Position numbers and translations under genes: made by a program | NCBI GenBank assembly: GCA_046329115.1 | Contig: JAXLVG010000006.1 | Location: 67,288 to 131,287 of the forward strand | Length of the DNA: 64,000 nt | From: Flavobacteriales bacterium | GTDB lineage: Bacteria > Bacteroidota > Bacteroidia > Flavobacteriales_F > PHOS-HE28 | Reading direction: 5' to 3' | Notes under the pieces: model-generated | What the model was told of the DNA's origin: nothing | Databases searched by the model: none | Seen by the model: only the letters and a program-made list of their open reading frames with translations | Part shown: piece after piece, positions 16,841-64,000 of the stretch | Position numbering within the stretch: the stretch's first letter is position 1 | Layout: every line of letters starts with the position of its first letter

Positions 16841-16906
16841 GAGGGGATGACGGGTTCGCTATTGAAAGGGTGGCGAATATACGCGGCCTGCAAGGGCGTT
16901 ATTGTG

Positions 16907-20821: not shown

Positions 20822-20843
20822 CAGGTTATCAACAATGAAGGAA

Positions 20844-20989: not shown

Positions 20990-21967
20990 ATGAAGAGAAG
21001 GACCTTCAAGCGTGCGGCCGCGTGGTGCGTACTGGGGTTGCTGGCGCCATTCATGGCCGCCGCGCAGGACCCGCAGTTCACGCAGTTCTATGCCAATCCG
21101 CTTTACCTGAACCCGGCCTTCGCCGGCACGGCCCGCTGCCCCCGGGTGGTCCTCAATTACCGCAACCAATGGCCCGCCCTTTCGGGCACCTTTGTCACCA
21201 CCAGCGCCAGCTACGACCAGGACGTGCGCGGCATCATGGGGGGACTGGGCCTGCTGGTCACCAATGACCAGGCCGGCAAGGGCACGCTGACCACCTCCAC
21301 GGTGAGCGGCATCTATTCGTATACCCAGGCCATCAACCGCAAGTTCAGCGTGAAGGTGGGTTTCCAAGCCACCTACTTCCAGAAGCGGCTTGATTGGAAC
21401 AAGCTGACCTTCGGCGACATGATCGACCCTCAGCGTGGGTTCATCTATCAGACCAACGATGTGCCCCGGGGGGGTGGGGCCAGCGGGGCCGACTTCTCGG
21501 CCGGCGTGCTGGGCTACACGGACATCTTCTTCTTCGGCTTCGCAGCGCATCACCTCACGGAGCCCAATGAATCGCTGATCGTGGGCACCAGCAAGATGCC
21601 GATGAAGTTGACCGGACATGCCGGTGCGGCCATTCCCTTGGGCATGAAAGGCAAGTACGGTGTGGCCAAGACGAAGCTCTCTCCCAACGTCCTGTACATG
21701 CAGCAGGCGGAGTTCCGCCAGTTGAACTTGGGTCTGTACGTGGACCACGGGCCCATCATCGCAGGTGTGTGGTACCGCTCGCGCGATGCCTTCATCGCCC
21801 TGATCGGCTTCCATGCGGACAAGTGGAAGTTCGGCTACAGCTATGATGTGACCACCAGCCGACTGACCACGGCCACGGCGGGCTCGCACGAGATAAGCCT
21901 CACCATGCAGTTCAACTGCAAAAAGAAGCGCCGCCGGGTACGCACCGTGCCCTGCCCCACGTTCTGA
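20990..21967 (+). CDS. PorP/SprF family T9SS membrane protein
   Basis: ATG 20990; AQDPQFTQFYANPLYLNPAFAG, YRNQWP, FGYSYD, GSHEISL. Confidence 0.92.
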   Translation: MKRRTFKRAAAWCVLGLLAPFMAAAQDPQFTQFYANPLYLNPAFAGTARCPRVVLNYRNQWPALSGTFVTTSASYDQDVRGIMGGLGLLVTNDQAGKGTLTTSTVSGIYSYTQAINRKFSVKVGFQATYFQKRLDWNKLTFGDMIDPQRGFIYQTNDVPRGGGASGADFSAGVLGYTDIFFFGFAAHHLTEPNESLIVGTSKMPMKLTGHAGAAIPLGMKGKYGVAKTKLSPNVLYMQQAEFRQLNLGLYVDHGPIIAGVWYRSRDAFIALIGFHADKWKFGYSYDVTTSRLTTATAGSHEISLTMQFNCKKKRRRVRTVPCPTF

Positions 21968-22019
21968 ACAAGTGACCCGACCGGCCGCGCTGCAAGGCGG
22001 CCGCCCAACAAGGAAGACC

Positions 22020-23792
22020 ATGAACCAGTTGCGGAACACGAGCCTGATCATCGCCGGAGCGGCACTCCTTACCGGGTGCCAGTTCGAAAAGAGCGGTGCC
22101 ACCGGCTGGAACTACAACGACTCCAAGAACGGCGGCTTCGAGAAGGCCCCCTTCGAGGAGCAGGAGAACGGACCCGGACTGGTGCTCATCGAGGGCGGCC
22201 AGTTCACCATGGGCCGGGTCACCGACGACCTGAACCATGAGTGGGACCACATCCCGCGCACCGTCACCGTGTCCTCCTTCTATATGGACGAGGTGGAGGT
22301 GACCAACTTCTACTGGCTGGAGTACCTCTACTGGTTGGACCGTGTTTACGGGGCCGACTTCCCCGAAGTGTACAAGAAGGCCCTCCCGGACACCTTGGTG
22401 TGGCGCAGCAAGCTGGCCTTCACCGAGCCTTACGTGGAATACTACCTGCGGCACCCGGCCTACCGGGACTACCCCGTCGTAGGCGTTAACTGGCTACAGG
22501 CCAACGATTACTGCGCCTGGCGCACCGACCGGGTGAACGAGGTGATCCTCATCCGCGAGGGGCTTTTCGAGCACTATCCGAACCAGATCAACGAGGACCA
22601 CTTCACCACGGACAGCTACCTGGCCGGCCAGTACGAGAGCGGCAAGAAGGTGGATGGCGTGCAGGACTTCAACCCGAACAAGGACACGCGCAACGTGCGC
22701 ATGGAGGATGGCATCCTGCTGCCGCGCTACCGGCTGCCGACGGAGGCCGAATGGGAGTACGCCTCCTATGGTCTGGTGGGCAACACCGTGGACGAGCGCA
22801 TCGTGGAGCGCCGGATCTATCCGTGGAACGGTCACTGGGTGCGTTACGACAGCCGCAAGAAAGGCGGTGCCTTCTACGGCGACTTCCGGGGCAACTTCAT
22901 GCGCGGCCGTGGCGACTACATGGGCGTTGCCGGCAGCCTGAACGACAATGCGGACGTGACCGCTCCGGTGTTCAGCTACTGGCCGAACGACTACGGCCTG
23001 TACAACATGGCCGGCAACGTGAGCGAGTGGGTGATGGACGTGTACCGTCCCCTCAGCCCCGAGGACAAGGATGACTTCCGTCCCTTCCGCGGCAACGTGT
23101 TCAAGACGAAGGTGCTGAACAGCGACGGTGGCATCCACGACAAGTACGACAAGGTGATCTACGACATCGACGGCATCAAGACCTACCTCACCGAGTTCCA
23201 GAAGCGCATGGGCGGCAAGGCCACCGAGGAGGAGGCCAAGCTGATCGATGATCTGCTCACCAAGGTGGACCAGGCCATTGAGATGCAGAACACCCGCAAG
23301 AGCGACCCTGCCCAGCAGACCGTGCAGGACATGGTGGACATGATCAAGGGGCAGGACCTGGAGATCTGTCCGAAGCTGCTCTCTGCTATCAGCGACTACC
23401 AGAGCGACCAGCCCGGCGAGGTGCAGATGCGCAAGGTGACGGTGGAGGAGAACATCGATCGCCGCAACTACCAGCAGTCGGACAACATCAACTTCCGCGA
23501 TGGCGACCTGGAGAGCAGCGTCTATTTCTCGGAGCCGGACCGCGAAGGCAACATCATGTACAACGGCGCCGGCGACTTCCCCAGCGGCTACCTGACCTTG
23601 ATCAACGACCACGCCCGCGTGTACAAGGGTGCCAGCTGGGCCGACCGCATCTACTGGGCCAACCCCGGCACCCGCCGTTACCTGGACGAGCGCCAGAGCA
23701 CAGCAACACTGGGCTTCCGCTGCGCCATGACGCGCGTGGGCAGCCCCGTGGGCCTGGGCGACGACAAGCGCCGCAAGAGCCTGAAGAAGTAA
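22020..23792 (+). CDS. gldJ: Gliding motility lipoprotein GldJ (FGE-sulfatase domain)
   Basis: Lipobox LLTGC; SGATGWNYND, YPVVGVNWLQANDYCAWRTDRVNE, YRLPTEAEWEYA, NDYGLYNMAGNVSEW; position between porU and murF. Confidence 0.9.
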   Translation: MNQLRNTSLIIAGAALLTGCQFEKSGATGWNYNDSKNGGFEKAPFEEQENGPGLVLIEGGQFTMGRVTDDLNHEWDHIPRTVTVSSFYMDEVEVTNFYWLEYLYWLDRVYGADFPEVYKKALPDTLVWRSKLAFTEPYVEYYLRHPAYRDYPVVGVNWLQANDYCAWRTDRVNEVILIREGLFEHYPNQINEDHFTTDSYLAGQYESGKKVDGVQDFNPNKDTRNVRMEDGILLPRYRLPTEAEWEYASYGLVGNTVDERIVERRIYPWNGHWVRYDSRKKGGAFYGDFRGNFMRGRGDYMGVAGSLNDNADVTAPVFSYWPNDYGLYNMAGNVSEWVMDVYRPLSPEDKDDFRPFRGNVFKTKVLNSDGGIHDKYDKVIYDIDGIKTYLTEFQKRMGGKATEEEAKLIDDLLTKVDQAIEMQNTRKSDPAQQTVQDMVDMIKGQDLEICPKLLSAISDYQSDQPGEVQMRKVTVEENIDRRNYQQSDNINFRDGDLESSVYFSEPDREGNIMYNGAGDFPSGYLTLINDHARVYKGASWADRIYWANPGTRRYLDERQSTATLGFRCAMTRVGSPVGLGDDKRRKSLKK

Positions 23793-33773: not shown

Positions 33774-34280
33774 ATGTCCACGATCGAATTCAACCAACAG
33801 CTCCTCGGCCTGCGCCAGCAACTGTACTACTTCGCGCTGAGCCTCACCCGCGACCGTGACAACGCACAGGACCTCCTTCAGGAGAGCATACTGCGCGCGC
33901 TGTCGAACCGGGACAAGTTCGCGGACAACACCAACTTCAAGGCGTGGATCTGCACGATCATGCGCAACACGTTCATCAACGACCACCGTCGTGGCAAGCG
34001 CACGAGCGCGATCATGGACCGCGTTGAGCGTGCGCAGGAGCAGGTGCGTCGGGTGGAAACGCCGGCGACCACCGAGGCGACCCTGAAAATGCGCGAGATC
34101 ACCAACAGCCTGGACCGTCTGGAGGATACCTTCCGGCAGCCGTTCCAAATGCACCACGCCGGTTACAAGTACCACGAGATCGCCGATCACCTGTCCATCC
34201 CCATCGGCACGGTGAAGAGCCGGATCCACCAGGCGCGTCAGCGGCTGATGTTCATGTTGAGCGACAAGCACATCCAATGA
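33774..34280 (+). CDS. ECF-type RNA polymerase sigma factor (carotenoid-cluster associated)
   Basis: ATG 33774; AQDLLQESILRA, NFKAWICTIMRNTFIN, YHEIADHLSIPIGTVKSRIHQAR; stop overlaps crtI start (ATGA). Confidence 0.9.
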   Translation: MSTIEFNQQLLGLRQQLYYFALSLTRDRDNAQDLLQESILRALSNRDKFADNTNFKAWICTIMRNTFINDHRRGKRTSAIMDRVERAQEQVRRVETPATTEATLKMREITNSLDRLEDTFRQPFQMHHAGYKYHEIADHLSIPIGTVKSRIHQARQRLMFMLSDKHIQ

Positions 34281-35776
34281 GCCGTTCCGCGATCGTCATC
34301 GGTTCCGGCTTTGCCGGGCTGTCTGCGGCCACTGCGCTCGCAGCGAAGGGCTTTGCCGTGACGGTCGTTGAGAAGAACGACACCCCGGGTGGGCGCGCGC
34401 GCGTGTGGCGCAAGGATGGCTTCGTCTTCGACATGGGCCCCAGCTGGTATTGGATGCCCGATGTGTTCGAACAGTGGTTCGCCAGCTTCGGCAGCTCGGT
34501 GAAGGCGCACTACGACCTGGTGCGGCTGGATCCCTCCTACCGGGTGTTCTTCGGCGATGCGGACACCTGGGACATTCCGGCCGGCACGGCCGAACTGCTG
34601 GCCCTGTTCGATCGTGTTGAGCCCGGTGCCGGCGCCCGGCTGAAGGACTTCCTGCAGGAAGCGGGCATGAAGTACCGCCTGGGCATGAACGACCTGGTCC
34701 ACCGCCCCGCCCTGCGTTGGAGCGAATTCGTGAACGCCCGCGTGGTATCCGGGATGATGCGTTCCACGGTGTTCACCTCGCTGCGCAAGCATGTGCGGTC
34801 GCGGTTCAGCGATCCCCGCCTGCAGCAGTTGTTGGAGTTCCCGGTGCTCTTCCTGGGCGCCACACCCGAGCGCACCCCGGCGCTGTACAGCCTGATGAAC
34901 TACGCCGACATGATGCTCGGCACCTGGTACCCGATGGGGGGCATGGGGCGCATTGTGGACGGCATGGTGGCCGTGGCACGGGACCACGGCGTGCACTTCC
35001 GGACGAACACACCGGTGACCCGGATCCTGGTGGAACAAGGCCGTGCACGCGGGGTGGAGACCACCGCTGGCGTGCTCCGCGCGGACCTGGTGGTGGCCGG
35101 GGCGGATTACCACCACGTGGAGACCTCGCTCCTGGATCCGGAGTTCCGCTCCTACAGCGAAGCCTATTGGGAAAGCCGCGTGATGGCGCCGAGCTCGCTG
35201 TTGTTCTACCTCGGCTTCGACCGGCGCCTGGAAGGCCTGCGCCATCACAACCTCTTCTTCGATCGGTCGCTGGACGTGCATGCGCGGGAGATCTACGATG
35301 CCCCCGCCTGGCCGAGCGACCCGCTGATGTACGTGTGCGTGCCCTCCATCACGGACCCGTCCGTGGCTCCGGCAGGCCACGAGAACGTGTTCGCCCTGAT
35401 CCCCATCGCACCCGGACTGGAGGACACGCCGGCCATCCGCGAGCGCTACCTGCGCCAGGTGCTCGACCGGATCGGTCAGCGCACCGGCATCGACGTCCGT
35501 CCCCACATGGTGCTTCAGCGCAGTTACTGCATCAACGATTTCCAAGCTGACCATAACGCTTTCCGGGGCAACGCCTACGGTCTGGCGAACACGCTACGCC
35601 AGACGGCCGTGCTCAAGCCGCGCATGAAAAGCAGACGTGTGCAGGGTCTCTACTTCACCGGTCAATTGACCGTTCCCGGTCCGGGCGTTCCGCCCTCGCT
35701 CATCAGCGGTCAGGTGGTGGCCGACCTGATCGCCAAGGAATTCCCGCAACGCGCCACTTCACCCCTACCCGCATGA
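34277..35776 (+). CDS. crtI: Phytoene desaturase
   Basis: IVIGSGFAGLSAA, GGRAR, FDMGPSWYWMPD, YPMGGM, GNAYGLANTL, PGPGVPPSLISG. Confidence 0.9.
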   Translation: MSRSAIVIGSGFAGLSAATALAAKGFAVTVVEKNDTPGGRARVWRKDGFVFDMGPSWYWMPDVFEQWFASFGSSVKAHYDLVRLDPSYRVFFGDADTWDIPAGTAELLALFDRVEPGAGARLKDFLQEAGMKYRLGMNDLVHRPALRWSEFVNARVVSGMMRSTVFTSLRKHVRSRFSDPRLQQLLEFPVLFLGATPERTPALYSLMNYADMMLGTWYPMGGMGRIVDGMVAVARDHGVHFRTNTPVTRILVEQGRARGVETTAGVLRADLVVAGADYHHVETSLLDPEFRSYSEAYWESRVMAPSSLLFYLGFDRRLEGLRHHNLFFDRSLDVHAREIYDAPAWPSDPLMYVCVPSITDPSVAPAGHENVFALIPIAPGLEDTPAIRERYLRQVLDRIGQRTGIDVRPHMVLQRSYCINDFQADHNAFRGNAYGLANTLRQTAVLKPRMKSRRVQGLYFTGQLTVPGPGVPPSLISGQVVADLIAKEFPQRATSPLPA

Positions 35777-36615: not shown

Positions 36616-37157
36616 ACGCCCACGATACGCACGTTGAACAGGTCACCCTCGTGAACGAGCGGGACGAGGCCATCGGCCGGATGGAGAAGCTGGAGGCCCA
36701 TCGCGTGGGTGCCCTGCACCGGGCCTTCTCCATCTTCATCTTCAACCGCGAGGGCCGCCTGTTGCTGCAGCAGCGTGCCGATGGCAAATACCACAGTCCA
36801 GGATTGTGGACCAACAGCTGTTGCGGTCACCCGCGGCCCGGCGAGCCCACGATGAAAGCCGCCCAACGCAGGCTGCACGAGGAGCTCGGCATCCGCTGCG
36901 AACTGACCGAGGAGTTCACCTTCAGCTACCGGGCGGAGTTCGGCAACGGGCTCATCGAGCACGAGCTCGACCATGTGTTCTTCGGCCGGCATGACGGTCC
37001 CTTCTTCCCCGCCAAGGAGGAGGTGAAGGACCTGCGCTGGATGCGCATGAACGACCTCGCCGATGACCTGCGGACCTCCCCGGGCATGTACACGGCGTGG
37101 CTCGCGGTATGCTGGCCCAAGGTGCTCGACCGCTTCTCGCTACGCCTACGGGCATGA
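36612..37157 (+). CDS. idi: Isopentenyl-diphosphate delta-isomerase type 1 (Nudix fold)
   Basis: ATG 36612; LHRAFSIFIFN, LLLQQRA..KY, WTNSCCGHP, RRLHEELG, EHELDHVF. Confidence 0.95.
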   Translation: MNAHDTHVEQVTLVNERDEAIGRMEKLEAHRVGALHRAFSIFIFNREGRLLLQQRADGKYHSPGLWTNSCCGHPRPGEPTMKAAQRRLHEELGIRCELTEEFTFSYRAEFGNGLIEHELDHVFFGRHDGPFFPAKEEVKDLRWMRMNDLADDLRTSPGMYTAWLAVCWPKVLDRFSLRLRA

Positions 37158-38494
37158 ACGGGGCACGCGGCATCACAGTGCACTGGTTCCGGCGCGACCT
37201 GCGGCTGGAGGACAATCACGGCCTGTTCCGGGCCCTCAGCGAGCATGGCAACGTTCAGCCGCTCTTCATCTTCGATACCGGGATCCTGGACAAGCTGGAG
37301 GACCGGGCCGACCGGCGCGTGGACCTGATCCACCGCACGCTCGAGGACCTGCAACGCCGCCTTGTGGAGCGTGGATCCACGCTGCTCGTGGCGCACGGCA
37401 GCCCCGTGGAGGTGTGGAAGACGCTCCTGGACCGGTACCCGATCACCGCTGTCACCGCCAACCACGACCACGAGCCCTATGCGCAGGCACGGGACAAAGC
37501 CGTGGGTGAACTGCTTGCAGGACGCGGCATCCCGTTCCGCACCTTCAAGGACATCAGCATCTTCGAACGCAACGAAGTGGTGAAGGACGATGGCGGCCCG
37601 TACACCGTGTACACGCCATACATGCGCAAGTGGAAGAGCCTCTTCCATCCGTCCATGGCGCAAGCGTACCCGAGCGAAAAGCATGCGGAGGCCTTCCGGC
37701 GATCGGATCCGGAGCCAATGCCCTCCCTGCAGCAGATCGGCTTCCAGCCCACGGACCTGGTGGTCCCACCCATGGAGGTGAGCGACGAACTGTTGCGCCA
37801 CTATGAACGCACGCGGGACCTGCCCGCCGTGGCCGGGACGAGCCGCATGAGCACGCACCTGCGCTTCGGCACGGTGAGCGTGCGCGCGCTGGTGCGCCGG
37901 TCGCTCGAACTGAGCCCGAAGTACCTGAACGAGCTCATCTGGCGCGAGTTCTTCATGCAGGTGCTGTGGCACTTCCCCCATCCGGAGAAGGCCTTCAAGC
38001 CCGCCTACGACCGCATCGCCTGGCGCCATGACGAACAGGACCTCGCCCGATGGACCGCGGGCCTGACCGGCTATCCGCTGGTGGACGCGGGCATGCGCGA
38101 ACTGAGCGCCACCGGCCTCATGCACAACCGGGTGCGCATGGTGGTGGCCAGCTTCCTCACCAAGCACCTGCTCATCGACTGGCGCATGGGCGAAGCCTGG
38201 TTCGCAGCGAAGCTGCTGGACTTCGAGCTCAGCAGCAACAACGGTGGCTGGCAGTGGGCGTCCGGTTCAGGCTGCGACGCCGCACCGTACTTCCGCGTGT
38301 TCAACCCGACGCTGCAGCTCCAGCGGTTCGACCCTGCGTTAACGTATGTGAAACGTTGGGTGCCCGAGCATGGAACGGTGAACTATCCGCGTCCGATGGT
38401 CGTTCATGAAACGGCCCGTGCACGTGCGCTCGCCACCTTCAAGGAAGGCCTGGAGCGATCGACCGTCACAGCCGCACAACAACGCATGTTCTGA
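37154..38494 (+). CDS. phrB: Deoxyribodipyrimidine (CPD class I) photolyase
   Basis: ATG 37154; WFRRDLRLEDN, TSRMSTHLRFG, ELIWREFF, TGYPLVDAGMREL, MHNRVRM, NNGGWQWASGSGCDAAPYFRVFNP. Confidence 0.93.
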   Translation: MNGARGITVHWFRRDLRLEDNHGLFRALSEHGNVQPLFIFDTGILDKLEDRADRRVDLIHRTLEDLQRRLVERGSTLLVAHGSPVEVWKTLLDRYPITAVTANHDHEPYAQARDKAVGELLAGRGIPFRTFKDISIFERNEVVKDDGGPYTVYTPYMRKWKSLFHPSMAQAYPSEKHAEAFRRSDPEPMPSLQQIGFQPTDLVVPPMEVSDELLRHYERTRDLPAVAGTSRMSTHLRFGTVSVRALVRRSLELSPKYLNELIWREFFMQVLWHFPHPEKAFKPAYDRIAWRHDEQDLARWTAGLTGYPLVDAGMRELSATGLMHNRVRMVVASFLTKHLLIDWRMGEAWFAAKLLDFELSSNNGGWQWASGSGCDAAPYFRVFNPTLQLQRFDPALTYVKRWVPEHGTVNYPRPMVVHETARARALATFKEGLERSTVTAAQQRMF

Positions 38495-41608: not shown

Positions 41609-44989
<3,381 letters not shown>

Positions 44990-52182: not shown

Positions 52183-53437
52183 CGTTCAGGGCATCCAGGA
52201 TGCTGCGGGCCTTCACCTCGCACTCGGCCCATTCGGCCTCCGGGTCGCTCTGGGCCGTGATGGCCCCGCCGGTGAACAGGGACGCACGTCCTGATCGCGC
52301 GTCGTAGGTGATGGTGCGGATCACCACGTTCAGGTCCAGGGTCCCGTCGGGCAGTTGGAAGCCCAGGGCACCGCTGTACAGCCCCCGGGGCGCATCCTCC
52401 ATGGCGTGGATGATCCGCATGGCGCTGGGCTTGGGCGCCCCGGTCATGCTGGCCATGGGGAAGGCTGCCCGCACGGCGTCCCAAGGGGTAAGTTCCGGAC
52501 GCAGTTGGGCCTCCACGGTGCTGACCAATTGATGCACGTTCGGAAAGGTGCGCACTGTACAAAGCTCCGGCACGGTGACGGAGCCCGGCACCGCCACACG
52601 CCCCAGGTCGTTGCGGGCCACGTCCACGGCCATGATGTTCTCGGCCCGGTCCTTCGCGTCGGCGGCCAGTTCGGCACGCATTCGATCATCGGCGGCCGGG
52701 TCGCCATGGCGCGGGCGCGTGCCCTTGATCGGTTGGGTGCGCATCCGGCCGGCCTCCACCCGCAGGAAACGCTCCGGGCTCATGCATACGGCATGGAAGT
52801 ACCCCCTCCGGAAATAGGCCGCATGGGCGGCCCCGGTGCGCTGCAGCAGCCGCGCAAAGAGGGCGAGTGGATCCAGCCCCGGTGCGTTGCACCACCGCTC
52901 CACACAGTAGTTGAGCTCATAGATGTCGCCGCGCTGGATACGCTCAAGGATGGCGCGTACCTGTTGCAAGTAGCGATCCGGCGAGGTGCGCGGTGTCCAC
53001 GCTTCGGGCAAGCGGATCGGTGCGGGCTCGGGGGCCGGACCGGTCAGTGCGTTCAGCACGTCCCGAACATCCGGGTCCAGGTCGGCGTGGCCCGCAGAGC
53101 GGGCTTGAGCCTTATCCACCAGGAACAGGTTCCTGGGCTCCCAGATGGTGGTGGAGCCATGGCCATGGTCCACCGGATGTGGGGGTGGATCCACGGCTAA
53201 CGGCCAGTGATAGTCCAAGGCGACCATGCGACCCGTGGGCCCCACGGGCGCGTCCAGCTCCGAAGCGGCGAGTTGCCGGGAAAGGCCAGCACCAACAACC
53301 CATGCATCCTGGTCTCCGTGGCGGCAGACCATCAGCGGGTCCAAGGCCTTCAATGCCGCCCAATTGATGGTCCTCTCAACGAACAAACGATCGGCGCTCA
53401 CGTGTTCATAAATAACGATGGCCCAAGGTATCCGCAT
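52172..53437 (-). CDS. pabB: Aminodeoxychorismate synthase component I / chorismate-binding protein (start uncertain: ATG 53437 or GTG 53401)
   Basis: GDIYELNY, SPERFL, TQPIKGTRPR, KDRAENIMAVDVARNDL, FPMASMTGAPK, RGLYSGALG, NVVIRT, GGAIT. Confidence 0.85.
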   Translation of the reverse strand: MRIPWAIVIYEHVSADRLFVERTINWAALKALDPLMVCRHGDQDAWVVGAGLSRQLAASELDAPVGPTGRMVALDYHWPLAVDPPPHPVDHGHGSTTIWEPRNLFLVDKAQARSAGHADLDPDVRDVLNALTGPAPEPAPIRLPEAWTPRTSPDRYLQQVRAILERIQRGDIYELNYCVERWCNAPGLDPLALFARLLQRTGAAHAAYFRRGYFHAVCMSPERFLRVEAGRMRTQPIKGTRPRHGDPAADDRMRAELAADAKDRAENIMAVDVARNDLGRVAVPGSVTVPELCTVRTFPNVHQLVSTVEAQLRPELTPWDAVRAAFPMASMTGAPKPSAMRIIHAMEDAPRGLYSGALGFQLPDGTLDLNVVIRTITYDARSGRASLFTGGAITAQSDPEAEWAECEVKARSILDALNDAR

Positions 53438-53645
53438 CGGCAACCCAACGGGAAAGATCCCGTCATCAGGGCGAAGCGGAACCGGGCACAGGACCTGCCT
53501 GAACACCGAACAGCCCTCACAATCACCTATCCGTCAATGCCTTGCAATATTCCCGGAAGCTGCTCGCACAGCTTCACGAGCTTGGGGCGGAACGTGCCCG
53601 GGGGGCTTGGCAAGAGATCCCGGTTCAACTACATTTGACGCTGCC

Positions 53646-54977
53646 ATGAAGAAACCCGTACTCCTTTTACTTGCCGGAATGAGTGCCTCGATGGCCTTCG
53701 GTCAGGCGGCGCGGCTCATCTTCAACACCGGTCTGAGCGACCCGTTCATGGTGTTCTCGCCGACGGGGACCACCACCACCTACCTGGTGGTGGACAACGC
53801 GGCGACCAACGCGATCACGCAGATCCCGGCGGGTTCAGGCAATATCAAGAGCGAGCACGAGAACAACCGCGTGCGCTGGACGAACTTTGGGGGTACAGGT
53901 GCTTATGTGGTACCCTTCACCACCGCGTCCAACGTGAAGATGCCGCTGACGGTGAACAAGACCACGGCCGGTGCTGGTCCTGCTGGTCATGACTCCCTGT
54001 CCTTCGTTTTCGCTACGTACAACCACAGCGTTGCCGCTCTCCCCCCGGCGACCCAGTGGTACAACTACAGCTACATGCCGACCGGCGTTACCCACATGGG
54101 TGACCTGTCCACGGGAACCGTGGACAACTCGGAGAACGCGATCGATCGCTTCTGGATCATCGACCCGCAGCAGGTCAACTACGCGTACACCACCAAGCCG
54201 GATGTGAGCATCACGTTCGCCTATGACATCACGGAGGTTACTGCAGGCAATGGTTTGAACGCGGGTATCACCAATGCTACGCCCATCGGCGCGCAGCGCT
54301 GGAACTCCGCCCTGAACAAGTGGGGGGACATGGTGCCGCAAGGTGTATGGGCCGCCAGCCTCGTTTCCAACGCGGCGATCCCCGGCGCGAACTTCTTCCG
54401 TTCCTGGACCCTGTCGAACATCGCGAGCCCGCTGCCGGTGGAGCTGACGTCTTGGACGGGTGCCTGCGACGGTAAGGATGTGGTGCTGAAGTGGACCACC
54501 GCATCGGAGAACGACAACGCCTTCTTCACCATTGAGAAGAGCAGCGATGGTCAGGCGTGGGTGGAGATCGGCCGCGTGGAGGCCGTGGGCAACAGCAGCA
54601 CCACCACCGAGTACAGCTTCGTGGACGCCAACGCCGGTGGCCTGGCCTACTACCGCCTGTCGCAGACGGACATCAGCGACCGCCGCGAGACCTTCCAGAC
54701 CGTTGCTGCGGGCTGCGAGGCCAACAGCACGGAGATCGTGAACGCGTGGGATGACGGCCAGGTGCTCAACCTGATGGTGAGCTCCACCGAGCCCGGCATC
54801 TACGACCTGACCATGAGCGACGCCCAAGGCAAGGCCATGGTGACCCGTGGCAGCGTGGTGATCAACCAGGGCTTCACACCGCTGGTGATCGCCAAGGAAG
54901 GCATCGCCTCCGGCGCCTACATGGTGACCCTGCAGAACGCGAGCGACGTGATGGTGCGCCGGGTGTTCCTGCACTGA
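53646..54977 (+). CDS. Secreted T9SS cargo: unknown N-terminal domain + PLPVEL Ig-like module + CTD
   Basis: ATG 53646, signal peptide; PLPVELTSWTG..LKWTTASENDNAFFTIEKS.DG..W module; CTD IASGAYMVTL...RRVFLH; TACATTTG box at 53630-53637. Confidence 0.8.
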   Translation: MKKPVLLLLAGMSASMAFGQAARLIFNTGLSDPFMVFSPTGTTTTYLVVDNAATNAITQIPAGSGNIKSEHENNRVRWTNFGGTGAYVVPFTTASNVKMPLTVNKTTAGAGPAGHDSLSFVFATYNHSVAALPPATQWYNYSYMPTGVTHMGDLSTGTVDNSENAIDRFWIIDPQQVNYAYTTKPDVSITFAYDITEVTAGNGLNAGITNATPIGAQRWNSALNKWGDMVPQGVWAASLVSNAAIPGANFFRSWTLSNIASPLPVELTSWTGACDGKDVVLKWTTASENDNAFFTIEKSSDGQAWVEIGRVEAVGNSSTTTEYSFVDANAGGLAYYRLSQTDISDRRETFQTVAAGCEANSTEIVNAWDDGQVLNLMVSSTEPGIYDLTMSDAQGKAMVTRGSVVINQGFTPLVIAKEGIASGAYMVTLQNASDVMVRRVFLH

Positions 54978-55045: not shown

Positions 55046-56086
55046 TCACCGTTGGATTATGCGCGCGAACGCTTCCACCCAGGCCGGCTCGGCGTTCAAG
55101 CTGGGCACCAGGGTGAGTTGGTCACCGCCGTGCTCCTGGAACAGCTCCGCATACTCCTCACCGATCTCGATCACCGTTTCCAGGCAGTCCGCCACGAAGG
55201 CCGGGCTCACCACCAGCATGCGCTTGATGCCCTTGGCAGGCGCTTCCTTCACGATGGCATCGCTGAACGGCCGAAGCCATCGCTGGTCCAGGCGTGACTG
55301 GAACCCGACTGACCACTGGCCGGACGGAAGACCGACACGCGCGGCGAGGGCCCGTGCAGTAGCGTGGCACTGCATCTTATAGCAGGTGGGGAACGCATCA
55401 TAGGGACCTCGCTCGCACGCACAACCGGTCACAGGTGACTTGTCGAGACGGGTGTCCAGGCTTTTCGCACAAGCGGTGTGCGCACGTTGCACATGCCGGT
55501 CCGGAAGACCGTGGAAGCTGAAGAGCACGTGATCGTAGGTGGACGGTGCACAGGAATGGATGCGCCGGGCAAAGGCATCAAGGAAGCCGGGATCGTCGTG
55601 GAAGGCGGGCACCGTGCGCACGGCGGGAACCACGGCATAGCCGCCGATGATCCGGAAGGCCTCCTGCAGGGCGGTGCCGGTGGCCGCGCTCGAATACTGG
55701 GGGAACATCGGTACGATGACGATCTCCTTCACCCGTTCCTTCATGAGGCGATCGATGGCCCCGGACAGGGAGGGGCTTTGATAGCGCATGGCGAGGAGCA
55801 CCAGGTGATCGTCCCCCAGTCTAGCCTGCAGCGCCCGGGCCAGGGCCTCGCCGTGCACGATGAGCGGGGAACCGGCCGGTGTCCACAGCTTGCGGTAGGC
55901 CTTGGCGCTTTTAGGCGCACGGAACGGTGCGATGATGCCGTTGACCAGGAGCTTTCGCGCGGCCCAGGGCAGGTCGATCACCCGGCCATCACCCAGGAAC
56001 TCGCGGAGGTACTTGCGGACATCACCGACGGACGTGCTGTCCGGCGTTCCAACGTTGATGAGCAGGACCCCGGTGCGTGGCTTCAT
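55046..56086 (-). CDS. hemH: Ferrochelatase
   Basis: LLINVGTPD, YLREFLGD, PMFPQYS, FSFHGLP, FQSRL, AFVADCLETVIEI. Confidence 0.95.
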   Translation of the reverse strand: MKPRTGVLLINVGTPDSTSVGDVRKYLREFLGDGRVIDLPWAARKLLVNGIIAPFRAPKSAKAYRKLWTPAGSPLIVHGEALARALQARLGDDHLVLLAMRYQSPSLSGAIDRLMKERVKEIVIVPMFPQYSSAATGTALQEAFRIIGGYAVVPAVRTVPAFHDDPGFLDAFARRIHSCAPSTYDHVLFSFHGLPDRHVQRAHTACAKSLDTRLDKSPVTGCACERGPYDAFPTCYKMQCHATARALAARVGLPSGQWSVGFQSRLDQRWLRPFSDAIVKEAPAKGIKRMLVVSPAFVADCLETVIEIGEEYAELFQEHGGDQLTLVPSLNAEPAWVEAFARIIQR

Positions 56087-56134: not shown

Positions 56135-57826
56135 CTACCCGGGGGTGGGCTTGGCGGACCGCCGGATGAACGGGAAGAACACGCGCGCGAACAAGAGCAG
56201 GACCCCGAGCCAGGCGCAGCAGCGGCCGAGCAGGTCGCCATGCCGAAGGAAAAAGGTCTGTTCATCGCTCGGATGGATGGTGCCCCGGAGGGCGGTACGC
56301 TGCCACCACCCGGTGGCCTGCGTGATGCGTCCCTCGGCATCAACGAAGCAACTGATGCCCGTGTTCGCTGCGCGGGCGATCGGCCGGCGCGTCTCGATGG
56401 CACGCAGCCTTCCCAACGCCAGGTGCTGCCGATAGCCGGGCGAAGTGCCCCACCAACCATCGTTGGTGATCACCACGAGCAGGTTGGCTCCCCGCCGCAC
56501 GTGATCGGCGATGTGATCGCCGAACACGCTCTCATAGCAGATCGCAGGGACGGCACGCACCCTTCCGTCGTCCGTGGTGAACACCGGGCGGTCCGGGCCG
56601 TGGCCCAGCGTGCCGCTCGTGCCTCCCAGATCGATACTGATGCCCCCCAGCGGTGCCAGAAGCCATTGGAAGGGCATGAGCTCCACCCCGACCACGAGCT
56701 TCGATTTGTGGTAGGATGCCCAGTCGCCATCGGCCTGCACATGCATGGCCGCATTGAAGAAGTCGTAGGCCCCACCGCCATCCTCAAGGGGACGTGCGGT
56801 GGCGGAGGCCGGAGTGCCGGGCGGGTAGTACAGTGCGGACGACATGCCGGCGATCACATCCGCCGGATGCGCGGCCTGGAACCGCCGGATGGCCCGGTAA
56901 CTCGCGGAACGCGTCATGTCGTTCTCCCACAATCCGAACAGTTCGGTGGGGCCGTTACGGCGATCGAGGTAGGTGGATTCCTGGAGCGCCGTTTCCGGGA
57001 TCACCACCAATGCCGTGGTATCCGTGGCCGCATCCGCTGCCAGGTCCAACATCACGCGCAGCTGCTCCAAGGGGTCCGTGCCACCGAATTTCTCCGTGTA
57101 CGGATCGATGTTGGGCTGCACCAGCACCACTTCCACACCCCTGCCCGCAGTGCGCGCGTCGCGCTGGTGCAGGATGCGTTGCGAGAACAGCAGGGGCAGC
57201 GCCAGCAAGGCGCCGACCGCAAGCACCCACGGCAGCGCCGCACGTCCACCTTGCGCACGTACGGACCGGACAGCGCGCTCCGCGAAGAGGTTCACCACCC
57301 AGACCCACAGCGTACCGCCTGCCACACCGGTCCATTCATACCACTGCACCCAACCGGTGCGCGTGGCGAACACATTGCCCAAGCTCAACCAGGGCCACTG
57401 CAGATCCCAGTCGTAGTGCAGATGCTCGAACCCAAGCCAGGCCACCACCAGCGCCGTTCTTCCTGCGTTGGCTCCGAAGGTGCGCCATGCCCACCGTGCG
57501 ATCCACCAGGGGATCACCATGAGCGCGGCGTTAGCCGTCATGGGAAAGCCGCCGGACAGGAGCCGGGTGGACCAGGACTCCTGCACCAGGCCCAGCCAGT
57601 AAGTGGTGGCCGCGTTCCAGATGAACATGCCCAGGTAGACGCGCCACAGCAGTGCACGGGCCGGACGCTCGGCGGATGGGCCTTCGCAGGCCGCGCGCAA
57701 GAGCCACAACAGCGGAACAAAGCCGATGAACACCAGCGGCGTCAGGGAGCCCGTTGCCGTCCACGCAAGCGTGAGCAATGCACCGGTGAGCGCTGCAAGG
57801 AGCGAATCGCGTGCGGCAGGAGGCAT
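56135..57826 (-). CDS. lnt: Apolipoprotein N-acyltransferase
   Basis: TM N-terminus, VQPNI, IPETA (Glu), YHKSKLV (Lys), AICYESVF (Cys), TNDGWWG, RAIETRR, ANTGIS. Confidence 0.9.
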   Translation of the reverse strand: MPPAARDSLLAALTGALLTLAWTATGSLTPLVFIGFVPLLWLLRAACEGPSAERPARALLWRVYLGMFIWNAATTYWLGLVQESWSTRLLSGGFPMTANAALMVIPWWIARWAWRTFGANAGRTALVVAWLGFEHLHYDWDLQWPWLSLGNVFATRTGWVQWYEWTGVAGGTLWVWVVNLFAERAVRSVRAQGGRAALPWVLAVGALLALPLLFSQRILHQRDARTAGRGVEVVLVQPNIDPYTEKFGGTDPLEQLRVMLDLAADAATDTTALVVIPETALQESTYLDRRNGPTELFGLWENDMTRSASYRAIRRFQAAHPADVIAGMSSALYYPPGTPASATARPLEDGGGAYDFFNAAMHVQADGDWASYHKSKLVVGVELMPFQWLLAPLGGISIDLGGTSGTLGHGPDRPVFTTDDGRVRAVPAICYESVFGDHIADHVRRGANLLVVITNDGWWGTSPGYRQHLALGRLRAIETRRPIARAANTGISCFVDAEGRITQATGWWQRTALRGTIHPSDEQTFFLRHGDLLGRCCAWLGVLLLFARVFFPFIRRSAKPTPG

Positions 57827-57886: not shown

Positions 57887-58984
57887 TCAGCGTGTGCCGA
57901 TCCGCTGCCACCGGCCCGCCAGCCCGGCCAAGGGCCCGGCTGCGAGCACGCACAGCAGCGGCCACAGCGGCACGAAGAACCGGCCGCTCCACTCATCGTG
58001 CGTGAGGCCGACGAGCAGCACATGGAGCATCATGCCAAGGAGCATCGGTGGGGCATTCGGCGCATACCTGGAACGCCAGCCACCGACGATGGCCAGAACC
58101 AGCAACGGATAATGCACGGCCAGGAACAGGTTGTGCGGCCATGAGAAGTACGGGCGTGGCCAGGTGAACAGGGACAATACGCGTTCACCGAAAGTGAGGA
58201 GCGCGGCCACAGGGTCGTGCGTGAAGAGCACCTGCTGGGCCGAAAGCACACTGCTGCCGCCGAGCTTCGCTGCGAGACCAGGATGGCGCGGGAAGCCGCA
58301 GATCACATCGCCCTCTGCGATGGGCCGCAGCTGGGCCTCCGGGATGCCGGGCACCAACAGGGCCGCAAGCAGCGCGCAGAGGGAGGCGGCCAGCACGATC
58401 GGCAGTGCGTACCGTGCCGAGCGATCGACGACCAAATGCCACAGGACCACGGGAACCACGAAACAGAACCCGACGGGCCGCGTGAACAACAGCACCACCC
58501 CCAATGCGATGCTCCAGCGGTCGAGGGCCCCTTTGGAGAAGGCGCGTTCCAGGTACAGGAGCAGGACGCTGGCGAAGAAGGACTCGGTGTACAGGGCCGG
58601 CACCCATTGCTGCAGCGGCAGGCACAGGAGCACGAGCACAGTGGTGATGGGAGCAGCGCGTTCAGTCGCGAAGAACACCGCCGACAGCCGACCCGCCGCG
58701 AATGCCGCGAGCACGGCGATCACCGCCTGCACCAAGGCCGCAGCGGCAGGCAGCCCCACCGCCATGAAGGGCACGAGGAAGAGCACATAGGATGCGAACT
58801 TCAGGTAGTTCCCGACGAGGTCGGCCAGGTCGCCGCTCAGCACAGCGTTCGCACACCCGATGTACTTCGCGGCCTCCTTGTCCAGCAGCAGATGGCCCGA
58901 GAGGATCCATCCGGACATGATGAGCAGGAAGGCGGCCGCCACGCCATGGGACAACGCACGGAGGTTCAAGGAGGGCCGCGCCAT
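57887..58984 (-). CDS. Polytopic membrane protein, possibly GT-C fold glycosyltransferase
   Basis: About 10 hydrophobic segments; early acidic DKEAAKY loop, LYTESFF, LLFTRP, and a late HDEWSGRFFVP segment reminiscent of ArnT/PMT-like enzymes. Confidence 0.55.
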   Translation of the reverse strand: MARPSLNLRALSHGVAAAFLLIMSGWILSGHLLLDKEAAKYIGCANAVLSGDLADLVGNYLKFASYVLFLVPFMAVGLPAAAALVQAVIAVLAAFAAGRLSAVFFATERAAPITTVLVLLCLPLQQWVPALYTESFFASVLLLYLERAFSKGALDRWSIALGVVLLFTRPVGFCFVVPVVLWHLVVDRSARYALPIVLAASLCALLAALLVPGIPEAQLRPIAEGDVICGFPRHPGLAAKLGGSSVLSAQQVLFTHDPVAALLTFGERVLSLFTWPRPYFSWPHNLFLAVHYPLLVLAIVGGWRSRYAPNAPPMLLGMMLHVLLVGLTHDEWSGRFFVPLWPLLCVLAAGPLAGLAGRWQRIGTR

Positions 58985-58990: not shown

Positions 58991-61900
58991 TCAGCGCAAC
59001 AGGTACATCTTGCCGAAGCCCTTTGTGAACAGGCCGCCTGCGCTGGTCTCCCGGTACTCGATGTCCTGGCCGTTCAACTGCGCGGTCACCTGGTACAGGT
59101 ATACGCCTTGGGCCAGCCGGTCACCGAAATCATCGGTGCCGTCCCAGGCGAACTCGGTGATGTTCCGACCGATGTGCAACGGCCCGAGGTCGTTGAGCAT
59201 CACCTCCCGGACCACGCGTCCGGTCACGGTCATGATCCGGATGCGCATGGCCGTGGGCGTCTCACTGCCGGTGAGCGTGAACACGAAACGCGTGCTGGTG
59301 GTGAACGGATTGGGGTAGTTGAGCACCTCGGTGATGGTGGGTTTGTTCACCACCTCGAAGCGCACGAACATGTCGCGGTCACCGCTGGAGTTCCCACTGA
59401 TGTCCGATGCCTGCACTTGAAGTGTGTAGATCCCATCCTGCGCGAGAACGGGCCGCCAGAGCGCATGGCAGACGTTCTCGCTGCCCTGGGTGGGGATGAA
59501 CTGGAGCTGCTCCTCGCCGCCCAGGCGGAACCAGACGCGTTCGGGCGTGTTCATGCCCGGGCGGGTCAGGAAGACCTTGATGCGCGTGGTGTCGGTGATG
59601 TCGTCGAACAGCAGGGTGGGGTTCTCATCATCCAGCGTGATCCGGATCTCCGGCCGGGCGCTCACGATGTCGCCGTCCAGGATGTGGATGCCATCGAAGG
59701 TGGCGTCCAGCACGGGGTTCTCCCGGTCGCGGAAGGTCTCGAAGCGCAGCGTGGCGATGTTGTTGAAGTGGTACATCTCCCGCTGGTCATATACCTGGGT
59801 GATGGTATCGCGCGGGTTCGCCTCGATCACCAGCGTGTTCGCGCCGGCCAACCCGGCCAGGTTGAAGCTCACCGTATCCAGCACCACACCGTTGACGGGC
59901 AGCGGTGCGTTGCGCCGCCAGTGCACGGTCTGCCGCTGGTTCTGAGCGTTGGTCACCCAGGCGCCGATCAGCAGGCTGTCCATGGGCGCATCGCTGATGT
60001 TGTGCACCGCCACCATCACGCGCCCCGTCTGCCCCTCGAAGAGACTGTCCACCGAGGAGTAGAACCCGAGCGGTGGATCGATCGCGCACTCCGGGGCCGG
60101 TGAGCCGACCAATTGCCAACGCACCGGTTGCGCCGGTCGGGGATCCGTGAACAGCGTATCGCTGAAGAGCTTCGCCTCCAACTGCAGTCGCTCCAGATCC
60201 AACTGGCTGATGCCGGCGGCCACGAGGTCGAGCGAATCGGTGGAGCTGGCGGACAGCTCGAGCAACGAAGTGGTCTGACCGAAGTCGTCCACCGCATTGA
60301 TGGTGATCCGGGCACTGTCCGAGGGCACGTTGGGGTCGATGCTCCAGTGCAGGGCATCCCAACCGAGGAACGGACCTGCCGGGGGAGCATCCATGAAGCC
60401 AATGTCGCCGGTCACAGGGAGATAGAGGGACGTATCGATCTGCTCGGTCGGGCCACCGAAGATCTCGAACCGCAGCGCGGGATTACCCTTCTGGCAGAAG
60501 AAGATGTAGGGAACCCCGTCCGGCACGGTGCCGGCCGCATACTGTTCGGCACCGAGCGTGGCCAGGGTCGCCGCCAACGGCGAGGCATCGATCGCCGGCC
60601 GGTTCAACCGCACGTAGGTGTACAGCAGCACGTAGCTTCCGTCCGGGATGGAATCACTCAGCGCGTTCGCCAACGCCACCAACCGGCTGGGTTGGTTCTG
60701 TTTGAACATGAAGCGCTTCTGTGATCGGTAGTTGATCACACATCCATTGTCACCACCACCTTCGTCGTTGTTCGCATTGAGAAAGTGCCCGGTGCCCTGC
60801 CAATACGTCGTCCAAGGGATGAAGGTCAGGGGGTCCACCACGGCCAGGTGCAGAGCCGGTTCGCTCGTGCAGCCTCCACCCTCCTGCACCACCAGGTCCT
60901 TGGTCCACTTGCAATTGGCCACACTGCCCCCCTGGGTGATGCAGGCCAGGTTGCGTTCTCCGGTATAGAAGTCCCATTCGCGCTGGGGCCGGTCGTAGAT
61001 TAGGTTGTTGTAGACGTTGTTCTTGAACTGGAAGTAGTGCGCCTGGCCCCAGCCCTTGCGGCCGTTGATGTGCTGGAAGGAGAACTCGCGCCATTCATAC
61101 CCGCCGTTCCCGACGCTGTCGATGGAACAGCGCCAGTAGAACACCAGGCTGTCCTGCAACTGGTTCAGGGAATAGATGGATCCGGGTGTCCAGGAGACCA
61201 CGCCGCCGGGGGCCTGGATGGTGGTCTGCTCCATCACGGGACTGTTGTACAGGTCCGTGGTGTCGATCTGGATCACGTAGGTGCGCACCGGGGCGAAGGG
61301 ATCGCCGGTACTGGCCTGCAGCGTGGGGGCCGGATCGGAGGTGATGGCGAAGTTGAAGGGATCCACCGGCAGCAGGTCACCGGTGGTGATCAGCAAGGGT
61401 TGCGAGGCGCGGTTGTTGGTCTGGTCATCATACTCCGCGATGGCGTCCGGATCGAGGTCCGCGCGCACCTCCACCTGGTTGAGCCCCACCCCGCCGCTGT
61501 CCTGCAGCACAGGCAGGGTGAAGGTGACGGTGTCCTCCCACTGCTGCATCACGTGCTGCTGCAGCACCGGTTGCAGTTCGATGTTCTCCTCGAGCATCCA
61601 GCGCTGTGCGGCCATGCTGAAGGGCGCGCCCGTCCCCTTGCCGATGTTCCGCACGCGGGCCACCACCTTGAAGCTGTCCACGTCGGCCGTCACCGGGTCC
61701 GGCTGGAAGCGCACATCCAAGGGGGTGATCTCCAGTTCAGGCTTGTCCGGTGAGTTCAGGATCACCGTGGGATCACCATGCAAGGTGAACTGCTCCACGC
61801 CGGAGGTCACCGATATGCCGGGGTCCGCCACAAAGAGCGCAGCGGAATCGAGGTAGTGCATGTGCTCACCGATGCTTCCACCATAGTTCACCTCCGTGAA

Positions 61901-64000
61901 GCTCTGGTAGAAGTTGCTCGTCATGTTGTACAGGTAGCCCGTCACCCCCAGGTCGATGGAGGCCAGGAAGGCGATGGCACCGGCACCGGGGGCCAGCACG
62001 AACTGCTCGCTTGCGCTGGCGTTGCTGGGCAGGTGCAGGTTGCCGGTGTAGCACGAGTTGCCGATCACCAGCGGATGCCGTCCGTTCCACTGGTAGTTGC
62101 CGGGCTGGTCGATGGTGATGTCGAACCCACCACCGCTGGCGTGGGCATAGAAGGTCATCAAGGTGACCCCCTCCTCGATCAGGTTGTACACGCTGTCCGC
62201 TGCGGCCTGCGAGATGATCTGGTCCGGGTTCTTCACGAAGTTGGTCACCTTGCCGCTGAAGTAGGTGGTGTCCTCCACGATGTCCTCGTAGGCCTGGAGG
62301 TAGCTGCCGAAGAGGATGTTCTCCTGCGGCGTGAAGCCGCCGCGGAAGTGGAGCACGTTCTTCATCCAGGCGGCGGGCTGCTCCTGCTGTTGCTCCAACG
62401 CACGCACCTTGTCCAGGTAGTCGAGCACCTGATCGTTGGTGATGGCCGCCAAACGGCCCACGGGGACGGAGAGGTCCCATGGGTCGCCCGATAGGCCGAG
62501 CGTCAGCCGCGCATCGCTGGGCGGGAAGCCGAAGGAGGGCACCAGGCAGAGCCTGCGCACGAGCGAATCCTGCACCGTGTGGCTGCGGTACCCGGTGTTG
62601 TCGCCGCCACCGAGCTTTGGAGCCTGTGTGGCCTTGCCGATCAGGAAGAGGGCCTGCGGATCATGCTCGTAGCTGGCCAGCAGATGGCCCATGAACCGCC
62701 GGATGCCTAGCGGATGGCGCAGCACCCCGCCGCCGAACTGCTGGTACAGCTCGGTGACATCGGCCACCAAGGTGTTGCACTGGTTCGCGCTCTCGTTGCT
62801 GCGGTAAGCCGCGTACTCCATGGCGCCGCTCATCAGCTTCGGGTGGGTCACGATCACCAGCGCACTGTCCACCGGGTTGGCGGCAAAATCGGTGAAGTAG
62901 CCGGTACCCCGCACGGGGTAGAGGGCTGACACCTGCCGGATGTTGCTGGGCCTGCTGACGTAGATGTGGGTGCGCTCGGCCCCGGTCCGCAGCGGCACCA
63001 GGGTGTTCCAGGTGGGCGCGCTGTACACGGGCGTGATCCGGTAGACCGAGTCGGCGTACACGTACATCAACGGCCCCCAGTTGCTCGTCATGCGAAGGGC
63101 CGTAAGCGTCTCCCCATTGTTCGGCACCTCCATGTGGATGTCCTCGCTCTCGAAGCCGCTGAACTGATGCTGATAGTCCACCTGGATGTAGGCCAGCGCC
63201 TGGCGGTCCGGATAGTCCACCTGCATGCCGCAGTTCAGCGGTAGATCGTGCACCAGGCTGAAGCGGAAGTTGGTGGTCGGGTTATCGAGCTGGTTGAGGG
63301 ATTGCAGCAGGTTGAAGTTGAACTTCATCGTCCGCTCCCCGATCCACGCCGTGTCCACCTGCGGCAAGGCGCTCAGGCCCGCACGGATGGTCAGGTGGTG
63401 GTCCAGGCCGCATTGGTTGCTCGCGGAGTTGGTACCGGCCACCACCACGGTCACTGGACATGGCGGCATCTGCACGTTGTCCAGGATGAACGGCGTGGGC
63501 ATGGCGATGTCGAACGGACCATCGTTGCTGTTGCTACCAGGGCCGTCGTTCAGCCAGTCCAGTTGGAAGTACCCCTCGCCATCGCCGGTCATGGAGGTGG
63601 TCACGCCGTTCACATCGCGCCTGCCCTTGCGGTAGAGCTGCGGGTTCATGTACACGGAGCTCGACCAGTACCAAGGGCGGTGCGGGAGGCTCTGCCAGTT
63701 GCCGGGAGACCTGTCGTAGACGCGCAGGCTGGTGGGCGCCGCATCCCAGGTGATGAAGAACTGGATGCTGTCCCCGACGATGGAGTAGTACGGATTGTTG
63801 ATGTGGTCCGGGTCGTCCCAGAGGGCGCTGTCCAGCCAGGCATCGTTCTTCGGCACGTAGAACTCGATGAAGTCGGTGCCATTGAACACCTGGTCGGAGT
63901 CGCCCGGGAAGTAGATCGGCACCTGCTTTTCGCGGCCGAAGACCTGGATCTTGGACGCATCCACCGAACCCACGGGAAAGCCGGCATTGGCGAGGGTGAG
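58991..64000 (-). CDS. Large PorU-like C25 family cysteine peptidase with T9SS CTD (5' end beyond window)
   Basis: Over 1660 aa, open to the window edge; LFLIGKA, VPVGRLAA, TFYAHAS (His), GNSCYTG (Cys), LHGDP; CTD VLNYPNPFTTST...WDGTDDFGDRLAQGVYLY...KMYLLR. Confidence 0.85.
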   Translation of the reverse strand, partial: LTLANAGFPVGSVDASKIQVFGREKQVPIYFPGDSDQVFNGTDFIEFYVPKNDAWLDSALWDDPDHINNPYYSIVGDSIQFFITWDAAPTSLRVYDRSPGNWQSLPHRPWYWSSSVYMNPQLYRKGRRDVNGVTTSMTGDGEGYFQLDWLNDGPGSNSNDGPFDIAMPTPFILDNVQMPPCPVTVVVAGTNSASNQCGLDHHLTIRAGLSALPQVDTAWIGERTMKFNFNLLQSLNQLDNPTTNFRFSLVHDLPLNCGMQVDYPDRQALAYIQVDYQHQFSGFESEDIHMEVPNNGETLTALRMTSNWGPLMYVYADSVYRITPVYSAPTWNTLVPLRTGAERTHIYVSRPSNIRQVSALYPVRGTGYFTDFAANPVDSALVIVTHPKLMSGAMEYAAYRSNESANQCNTLVADVTELYQQFGGGVLRHPLGIRRFMGHLLASYEHDPQALFLIGKATQAPKLGGGDNTGYRSHTVQDSLVRRLCLVPSFGFPPSDARLTLGLSGDPWDLSVPVGRLAAITNDQVLDYLDKVRALEQQQEQPAAWMKNVLHFRGGFTPQENILFGSYLQAYEDIVEDTTYFSGKVTNFVKNPDQIISQAAADSVYNLIEEGVTLMTFYAHASGGGFDITIDQPGNYQWNGRHPLVIGNSCYTGNLHLPSNASASEQFVLAPGAGAIAFLASIDLGVTGYLYNMTSNFYQSFTEVNYGGSIGEHMHYLDSAALFVADPGISVTSGVEQFTLHGDPTVILNSPDKPELEITPLDVRFQPDPVTADVDSFKVVARVRNIGKGTGAPFSMAAQRWMLEENIELQPVLQQHVMQQWEDTVTFTLPVLQDSGGVGLNQVEVRADLDPDAIAEYDDQTNNRASQPLLITTGDLLPVDPFNFAITSDPAPTLQASTGDPFAPVRTYVIQIDTTDLYNSPVMEQTTIQAPGGVVSWTPGSIYSLNQLQDSLVFYWRCSIDSVGNGGYEWREFSFQHINGRKGWGQAHYFQFKNNVYNNLIYDRPQREWDFYTGERNLACITQGGSVANCKWTKDLVVQEGGGCTSEPALHLAVVDPLTFIPWTTYWQGTGHFLNANNDEGGGDNGCVINYRSQKRFMFKQNQPSRLVALANALSDSIPDGSYVLLYTYVRLNRPAIDASPLAATLATLGAEQYAAGTVPDGVPYIFFCQKGNPALRFEIFGGPTEQIDTSLYLPVTGDIGFMDAPPAGPFLGWDALHWSIDPNVPSDSARITINAVDDFGQTTSLLELSASSTDSLDLVAAGISQLDLERLQLEAKLFSDTLFTDPRPAQPVRWQLVGSPAPECAIDPPLGFYSSVDSLFEGQTGRVMVAVHNISDAPMDSLLIGAWVTNAQNQRQTVHWRRNAPLPVNGVVLDTVSFNLAGLAGANTLVIEANPRDTITQVYDQREMYHFNNIATLRFETFRDRENPVLDATFDGIHILDGDIVSARPEIRITLDDENPTLLFDDITDTTRIKVFLTRPGMNTPERVWFRLGGEEQLQFIPTQGSENVCHALWRPVLAQDGIYTLQVQASDISGNSSGDRDMFVRFEVVNKPTITEVLNYPNPFTTSTRFVFTLTGSETPTAMRIRIMTVTGRVVREVMLNDLGPLHIGRNITEFAWDGTDDFGDRLAQGVYLYQVTAQLNGQDIEYRETSAGGLFTKGFGKMYLLR

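Follow-up and report, generated by a model that had tools for sequence, protein, structure and literature searches.

The stretch of Flavobacteriales DNA analysed here (64,000 nucleotides in full, referred to below as the window) contains a canonical cluster of type IX secretion system (T9SS) genes and, at its far end, a second porU-like gene, porU2, followed by g3, lnt and hemH. The features to which the text refers are given below in window coordinates, and residues are numbered from the first codon of the window copy unless the full-length protein is named.

58991–64000, minus strand: porU2, 3′ part of 5010 nt, encoding aa 59–1727 of 1727; stop codon at 58991–58993
62858–64000, minus strand: PorU-like N-terminal beta-rich region of PorU2, encoded upstream of C25 (aa 1–381)
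61763–62857, minus strand: peptidase C25 catalytic domain of PorU2, Pfam PF01364 (aa 382–746)
62141–62143, minus strand: codon of putative catalytic His620 (His678 in the full-length protein), aligned to the His of PorU
62051–62053, minus strand: codon of putative catalytic Cys650 (Cys708 in the full-length protein), aligned to the Cys of PorU
59441–61420, minus strand: family-specific middle module of PorU2 (aa 861–1520), as seen in the AlphaFold2 model
58994–59365, minus strand: T9SS C-terminal domain (CTD) of PorU2, long PorU type (aa 1546–1669)
57887–58984, minus strand: g3, a polytopic membrane protein of 365 aa, starting 7 nt past the porU2 stop
56135–57826, minus strand: lnt, apolipoprotein N-acyltransferase (TIGR00546, 214 bits)
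55046–56086, minus strand: hemH, downstream of lnt
16907–20821, minus strand: canonical porU (NF033707, 1250 bits)
15587–16840, minus strand: porV, following porU
20804–21967, plus strand: PorP/SprF-family gene on the other side of porU
21972–23792, plus strand: gldJ, beyond the PorP/SprF-family gene

The position assigned to canonical porU by the initial annotation is borne out by its high score with the PorU model and by the presence of porV beside it, and the whole region 15587–23792 represents a canonical T9SS cluster. The porV2-porU2 pair thus coexists with canonical porU-porV in the same genome. Elsewhere in the window a gene for SecA was registered at 41609–44989, as well as a carotenoid desaturase of CrtI/CrtD type (34277–35776) and a photolyase (37097–38494), the last two of which suggest a pigmented organism meeting light or oxidants.

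The open frame of porU2 comprises 1669 codons on the minus strand and runs off the end of the window, thus confirming the C25 protein of >1660 aa reported initially. As to the extent of the gene, this frame stands, but the complete gene is longer (1727 aa), since its start codon lies 174 nt outside the window and the first 58 codons are missing from the window copy. The full-length sequence, retrieval of which had been recommended, was taken from the closest database protein (P0001, 99% identical, 1727 aa) together with contig L003, which shares 97.4% nucleotide identity with the window over 14.7 kb. The 58 residues supplied by this contig correspond to a signal peptide (MKRLLPLLFLLLSAVSAQA followed by QQVYGNEW), so that the full-length PorU2 begins with MKRLL...AQA before QQ. 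Third-position GC of porU2 (0.88) is typical for genes of this genome with its 65% GC.

The catalytic domain matches Pfam PF01364 with 155 bits against a gathering score of 23 (E 4e-45), and in a BLASTP alignment of the two window proteins FYAHAS of PorU2 pairs with YIGHGG of PorU, while GNSCY pairs with TATCE, in full agreement with the earlier statement that the C25 domain keeps both His and Cys. The dyad was then surveyed in 121 database homologues and in another 81 genes of the porU2 loci, covering four orders. Both residues turned out to be invariant in the 121 homologues and equally in the 81 locus genes, down to approximately 25% identity and with tandem paralogues included. Among proteins of known structure, a single PorU2 sequence found nothing in the PDB by phmmer, and no gingipain was found by any of the PDB sequence searches; the family profile, however, matched entry 6ZA2 at E 1.5e-16, and in this alignment the His and Cys of the two proteins fall into the same columns. 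This entry is PorU of P. gingivalis, the C-terminal signal peptidase and sortase of T9SS.

Structural modelling, which had also been proposed at the outset, predicted a gingipain-like fold. Gingipains RgpB and Kgp belong to MEROPS family C25 of clan CD, and it is these proteins, RgpB (1cvr, E 1e-16) and Kgp, that were returned by Foldseek as the best PDB matches of the AlphaFold2 model built for aa 1–870 (pLDDT 85.3, pTM 0.84), with target TM of about 0.6. In the model His620 follows strand 614–618 and Cys650 follows strand 644–647, so that each of the dyad residues is placed two positions past a beta-strand, while the loop directly after the His (aa 621–629) is poorly modelled (pLDDT <50).

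Upstream of the catalytic domain the protein is folded, according to the same model, into beta domains with pLDDT of about 80–93. This region lies inside the match to NCBIfam model NF052324, which also matches canonical PorU over its aa 185–948, and its likeness to the N-terminal region of PorU, claimed earlier, is supported by matches to both PorU and PorU2 models. The C-terminal half was modelled separately (aa 861–1669, pLDDT 79.7) and appeared as a chain of beta-sandwiches with one alpha/beta domain. Fold search with this half gave generic multi-Ig matches and PorU, and no second catalytic domain was found in it. The additional domains had been described as Ig/CARDB-like. The first part of this label is consistent with the predicted beta-sandwiches, while the second one is unsupported, because neither CARDB nor any other Pfam family matched the extra domains.

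A search with the 660-aa middle module through 1.84 billion representatives gave 1722 matches at E<=1e-3, of which 676 remained at the stricter limit of E<=1e-30. Among the matches listed, the module always occupies approximately residues 870–1560 of proteins with ~1650–1740 aa, apart from shorter ones, which are probably fragments. Since both position of the module and length of the protein are constant, this architecture can be regarded as fixed and family-specific. Clustered at 50% identity, the module is represented by at least ~700–1700 clusters from four orders. It also harbours a patch that is near-invariant across orders (window ~61030–61144, minus strand; full-length residues 1011–1049) and has the pattern W-R...SF...G..Q.H..Q, with V1011, W1014, R1015, W1028, S1032, F1033, G1041, Q1044, H1046 and Q1049 as its constituents. 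No fold or family match accounted for this patch, which might be a candidate ligand or cargo site.

The likeness of the C-terminal domain to that of PorU, noticed at the first inspection, was reproduced by BLASTP, in which the last 119 aa of PorU2 showed 37% identity to the CTD of the window PorU (E 1e-15). The same part of the protein corresponds to positions 963–1079 of the NF033707 profile, has a FlgD_ig match in Pfam and gives 22.3 bits with TIGR04183 at a cutoff of 23. Its length in PorU2 proteins is about 114–124 aa, which recalls PorU and PorZ, whose CTDs of 96–108 aa are not cleaved, while the CTDs removed from cargo proteins measure 67–88 aa (PMC11285876). In the 86 loci searched, the profile of this domain matched PorU2 and canonical PorU only, and nearby CTD-bearing cargo was not matched by it. 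A comparison between four orders shows that conservation within PorU2 is highest in the CTD (mean column identity of ~0.75 against ~0.5 in the catalytic domain), and such conservation fits a tightly constrained contact with PorV2 or with the translocon.

The family to which the gene belongs already has a name. Window PorU2 gives 509.9 bits with NF052324 (cutoff 450) over profile positions 49–879 of 879, and the unmatched positions are those removed by the window end. Its score with NF033707, the PorU model, is 156.5 bits in two stretches, below the cutoff of 420, while canonical PorU shows the opposite score pattern. NF052324 is entitled "putative type IX secretion system sortase PorU2" in NCBIfam, and NF052325 "putative type IX sorting system protein PorV2". 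Searches of the literature found no paper using either of these names; all text matches to "PorU2" or "PorV2" proved to be false and consisted of "PorU" or "PorV" with a superscript reference number. The name was given by the NCBI curators as a prediction, and the putative reading as a second sortase was reached by them independently. Thus, by its profile scores the open frame encodes PorU2, a paralogue of the T9SS sortase PorU, and window porU2 extends a family already named by NCBI by one more, divergent member rather than being the first example of a new kind of system. The divergence follows from the scores: members from Chitinophagales, Fluviicola and Bacteroidales (loci L020, L035, L070 and L081) give 708–915 bits with NF052324 compared with 510 bits for the window protein, and the Flavobacteriales clade from sludge should therefore be considered a divergent branch of the PorU2 family. 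Proteins of this clade are close to the edge of the model, and fragmentary copies could be missed.

A search for a porV paralogue upstream had been suggested, and such a gene was found directly in front of porU2 in contig L003, beyond the end of the window. It scores 500 bits with NF052325 (cutoff 325) and shares its last 4 nt (ATGA) with the start of porU2. The gene upstream of porU2 in contig L001 (85% amino acid identity) is also PorV2, with scores in L003 and L001 ranging within 500–504 bits. With the PorQ model PorV2 gives 61–74 bits and with the PorV model 29–42 bits, so that on these scores the designation PorV/PorQ-family barrel suits it best; being closer to PorQ than to PorV, it indicates that the complex may depart from the PorU-PorV arrangement. 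Within the window itself g3 was considered as a PorV paralogue and rejected, as it has no PorV or PorQ match and is a polytopic protein of inner-membrane type.

The pair porV2-porU2 was registered in ~72 of 80 loci from Flavobacteriales, Chitinophagales, Saprospiraceae and Bacteroidales, these being essentially all loci with an intact upstream flank, and the length of porU2 in the paired loci is about 5.1 kb. For four distant pairs both partners were confirmed with NCBIfam (708–915 bits for PorU2 and 475–556 bits for PorV2). Some loci of Chitinophagales and Saprospiraceae contain two porU2 genes, either in direct tandem (L030, L045) or with porV2 between them (L039, L082), and every copy there keeps His and Cys; in locus L034 two PorV2 genes precede a single porU2. 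No PorZ/PorQ-like partner for acceptor delivery was seen encoded near the porU2 loci.

A one-genome-per-species scan revealed 226 relatives of PorU2. The best 80 of these 226 belong to uncultured Flavobacteriales, Crocinitomicaceae, Fluviicola, Vicingaceae, Chitinophagales, Saprospiraceae and rumen Bacteroidales; many of the 80 are Chitinophagales, among which Terrimonas ginsenosidimutans and Thermoflavifilum thermophilum are cultured. Sequences near-identical to porU2 are present in many metagenomes of activated sludge and wastewater. Contigs from a biofilm metatranscriptome cover the gene at low and even depth, cross its junction with g3 and extend past the window end over the porV2/porU2 junction. 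This fits co-transcription of porV2-porU2-g3, to which signal DNA carry-over could contribute.

PorU2 resembles PorU in its homologous N-terminal region, in the C25 domain, where His and Cys align and which is followed by an Ig-like domain, in the long CTD of uncleaved type and in its pairing with a PorV/PorQ-family barrel (PMC11285876). The differences are also considerable. The C25 regions are only ~22% identical and PorU2 fails the NF033707 model; an extra module of ~650 aa is inserted ahead of the CTD; the barrel precedes the peptidase (porV2-porU2), while the canonical order is porU-porV; the His of PorU2 is followed by A or S (HA or HS), whereas PorU has HG; and PorZ/PorQ equivalents were not seen near porU2. 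With gingipains PorU2 shares the closest fold of its catalytic and Ig-like domains, but sequence identity is as low as ~12–14%, the N-terminal region is PorU-like without a gingipain prodomain, haemagglutinin/adhesin domains are absent and the CTD is of PorU type. In relation to the NF052324 family, the window protein passes the cutoff despite its missing first 58 aa.

We consider it rather probable that a second surface processing complex of the PorU/PorV kind exists, with PorU2 as its catalytic subunit. The protein would be exported by Sec by means of its signal peptide and then taken through the outer membrane by T9SS due to its own C-terminal domain. By analogy with PorU, it would keep this CTD uncleaved and stay at the cell surface docked to PorV2, where the clan-CD dyad Cys708/His678 would cut the CTD off a subset of T9SS cargo, and the C-terminus thus freed would possibly be handed by PorU2 to an acceptor at the surface. 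The 650-aa beta-sandwich module, having no counterpart in canonical PorU, may provide reach or bind cargo or acceptor. Surface location of PorU2, its interaction with PorV2, catalysis, substrates and preference for transpeptidation over hydrolysis are what we infer from this combination of features. Two roles were proposed at the first inspection, that of a second sortase or transpeptidase and that of a surface protease; the PorV/PorQ-type barrel encoded upstream and the PorU-type CTD argue for the sortase-like one, which is also the reading behind NF052324.

The protease half of that proposal deserves separate attention. If PorU2 were ordinary T9SS cargo, that is, a gingipain-like surface or secreted protease engaged in nutrition or remodelling and playing no role in cargo processing, then its nearest solved folds (RgpB and Kgp), the presence of a T9SS CTD and the string of beta-sandwiches, which recalls the stalks of surface enzymes, would all find a natural explanation. 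We regard this as unlikely, since in its N-terminal region as well as in its CTD the protein resembles PorU and not the gingipains, an obligate, translationally coupled barrel of the PorV/PorQ family preserved in four orders is unexpected for a cargo protease, and the fixed layout of ~1650–1740 aa contrasts with the variability of degradative enzymes.

The genes downstream of porU2 may bear on the nature of the acceptor. For the window g3 protein no match was found in Pfam or NCBIfam, and the g3 profile had no match in the PDB. Among its 29 homologues, six weakly match Glyco_transf_22 and one PMT_2, both being GT-C families, so that g3 is possibly a glycosyltransferase of GT-C type. A g3-like gene is found beside porU2 in 14 of 86 loci belonging to two orders. 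In six of them, from Flavobacteriales, it adjoins porU2 on the same strand, and in eight loci of Chitinophagales it lies 0–3 kb downstream, four times beside an acyltransferase-3-like gene. Its membership of the PorU2 system is tentative. In Flavobacteriales porU2 is also followed by lnt, but in that clade alone, and the entire 25 kb are syntenic there; the adjacency is probably merely syntenic, and for this reason lnt was set aside as a functional partner. Clustering of open reading frames from 84 loci otherwise revealed only housekeeping synteny (tyrS, hscA, ribE, xerC), the non-housekeeping genes being PorV2, some g3-like genes and some acyltransferase-3-like ones. Within the Flavobacteriales clade a gene at 53418–54977 (plus strand) is syntenic with porU2-lnt-hemH as well. 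It encodes a conserved protein of ~430–520 aa, the window copy of which has no family match, while the orthologue in contig L003 weakly matches the T9SS type A CTD (19.7 bits, cutoff 23), and this protein may be T9SS cargo.

A variant can be derived from this neighbourhood, in which PorV2-PorU2 anchors its cargo elsewhere than PorU does, onto a glycolipid or lipid in whose synthesis g3 and, within this clade, also lnt would assist. Close spacing of g3 and porU2, crossing of their junction by RNA-derived contigs, recurrence of the g3-like gene within 0–3 kb in two orders and GT-C matches of some homologues are in line with such a role. Nevertheless, we find this variant improbable, as most loci are devoid of g3, the assignment to glycosyltransferases is weak (6 of 29 homologues, window g3 itself being unmatched) and adjacency of lnt is limited to a single syntenic clade.

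Even less credible, and in our opinion very unlikely, is a role of PorU2 as a non-catalytic scaffold or adaptor of the PorV2 barrel, for instance an adhesin-like one, with C25 serving as a binding module. Conservation of the CTD and the middle module, which is at least as high as that of the catalytic domain, and the poorly modelled loop beside the His are compatible with this idea, but a protein without catalysis would hardly have kept His and Cys in every one of ~200 sequences, some with as little as 25% identity and tandem paralogues among them. A dead paralogue, finally, is rejected on account of the same invariant dyad, and the modelled fold, being like that of active gingipains, agrees with the initial opinion on this point.

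Returning to PorU2 as the catalytic subunit of a processing complex, one may go a step further and imagine PorV2-PorU2 as an independent second attachment complex with its own subset of T9SS cargo, possibly using a different anchor made with the aid of g3. This extension is doubtful but worth stating, since if it is true, many environmental Bacteroidota would have two parallel branches of T9SS sorting.

To our knowledge, everything understood mechanistically about T9SS cargo processing has been learned from one complex, PorU/PorV/PorQ/PorZ, in P. gingivalis and a few flavobacteria. The idea of a second sortase is already present in the annotation rules of NCBI, and the present analysis contributes anatomical support for it and names cultured carriers. 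Being named but seemingly missing from the literature searched, the PorU2 family therefore remains a worthwhile target. A widespread putative second sortase with its own barrel would mean that many environmental Bacteroidota sort their surface proteins by two routes, and this would bear on the display of enzymes and adhesins in sludge, soil and rumen.
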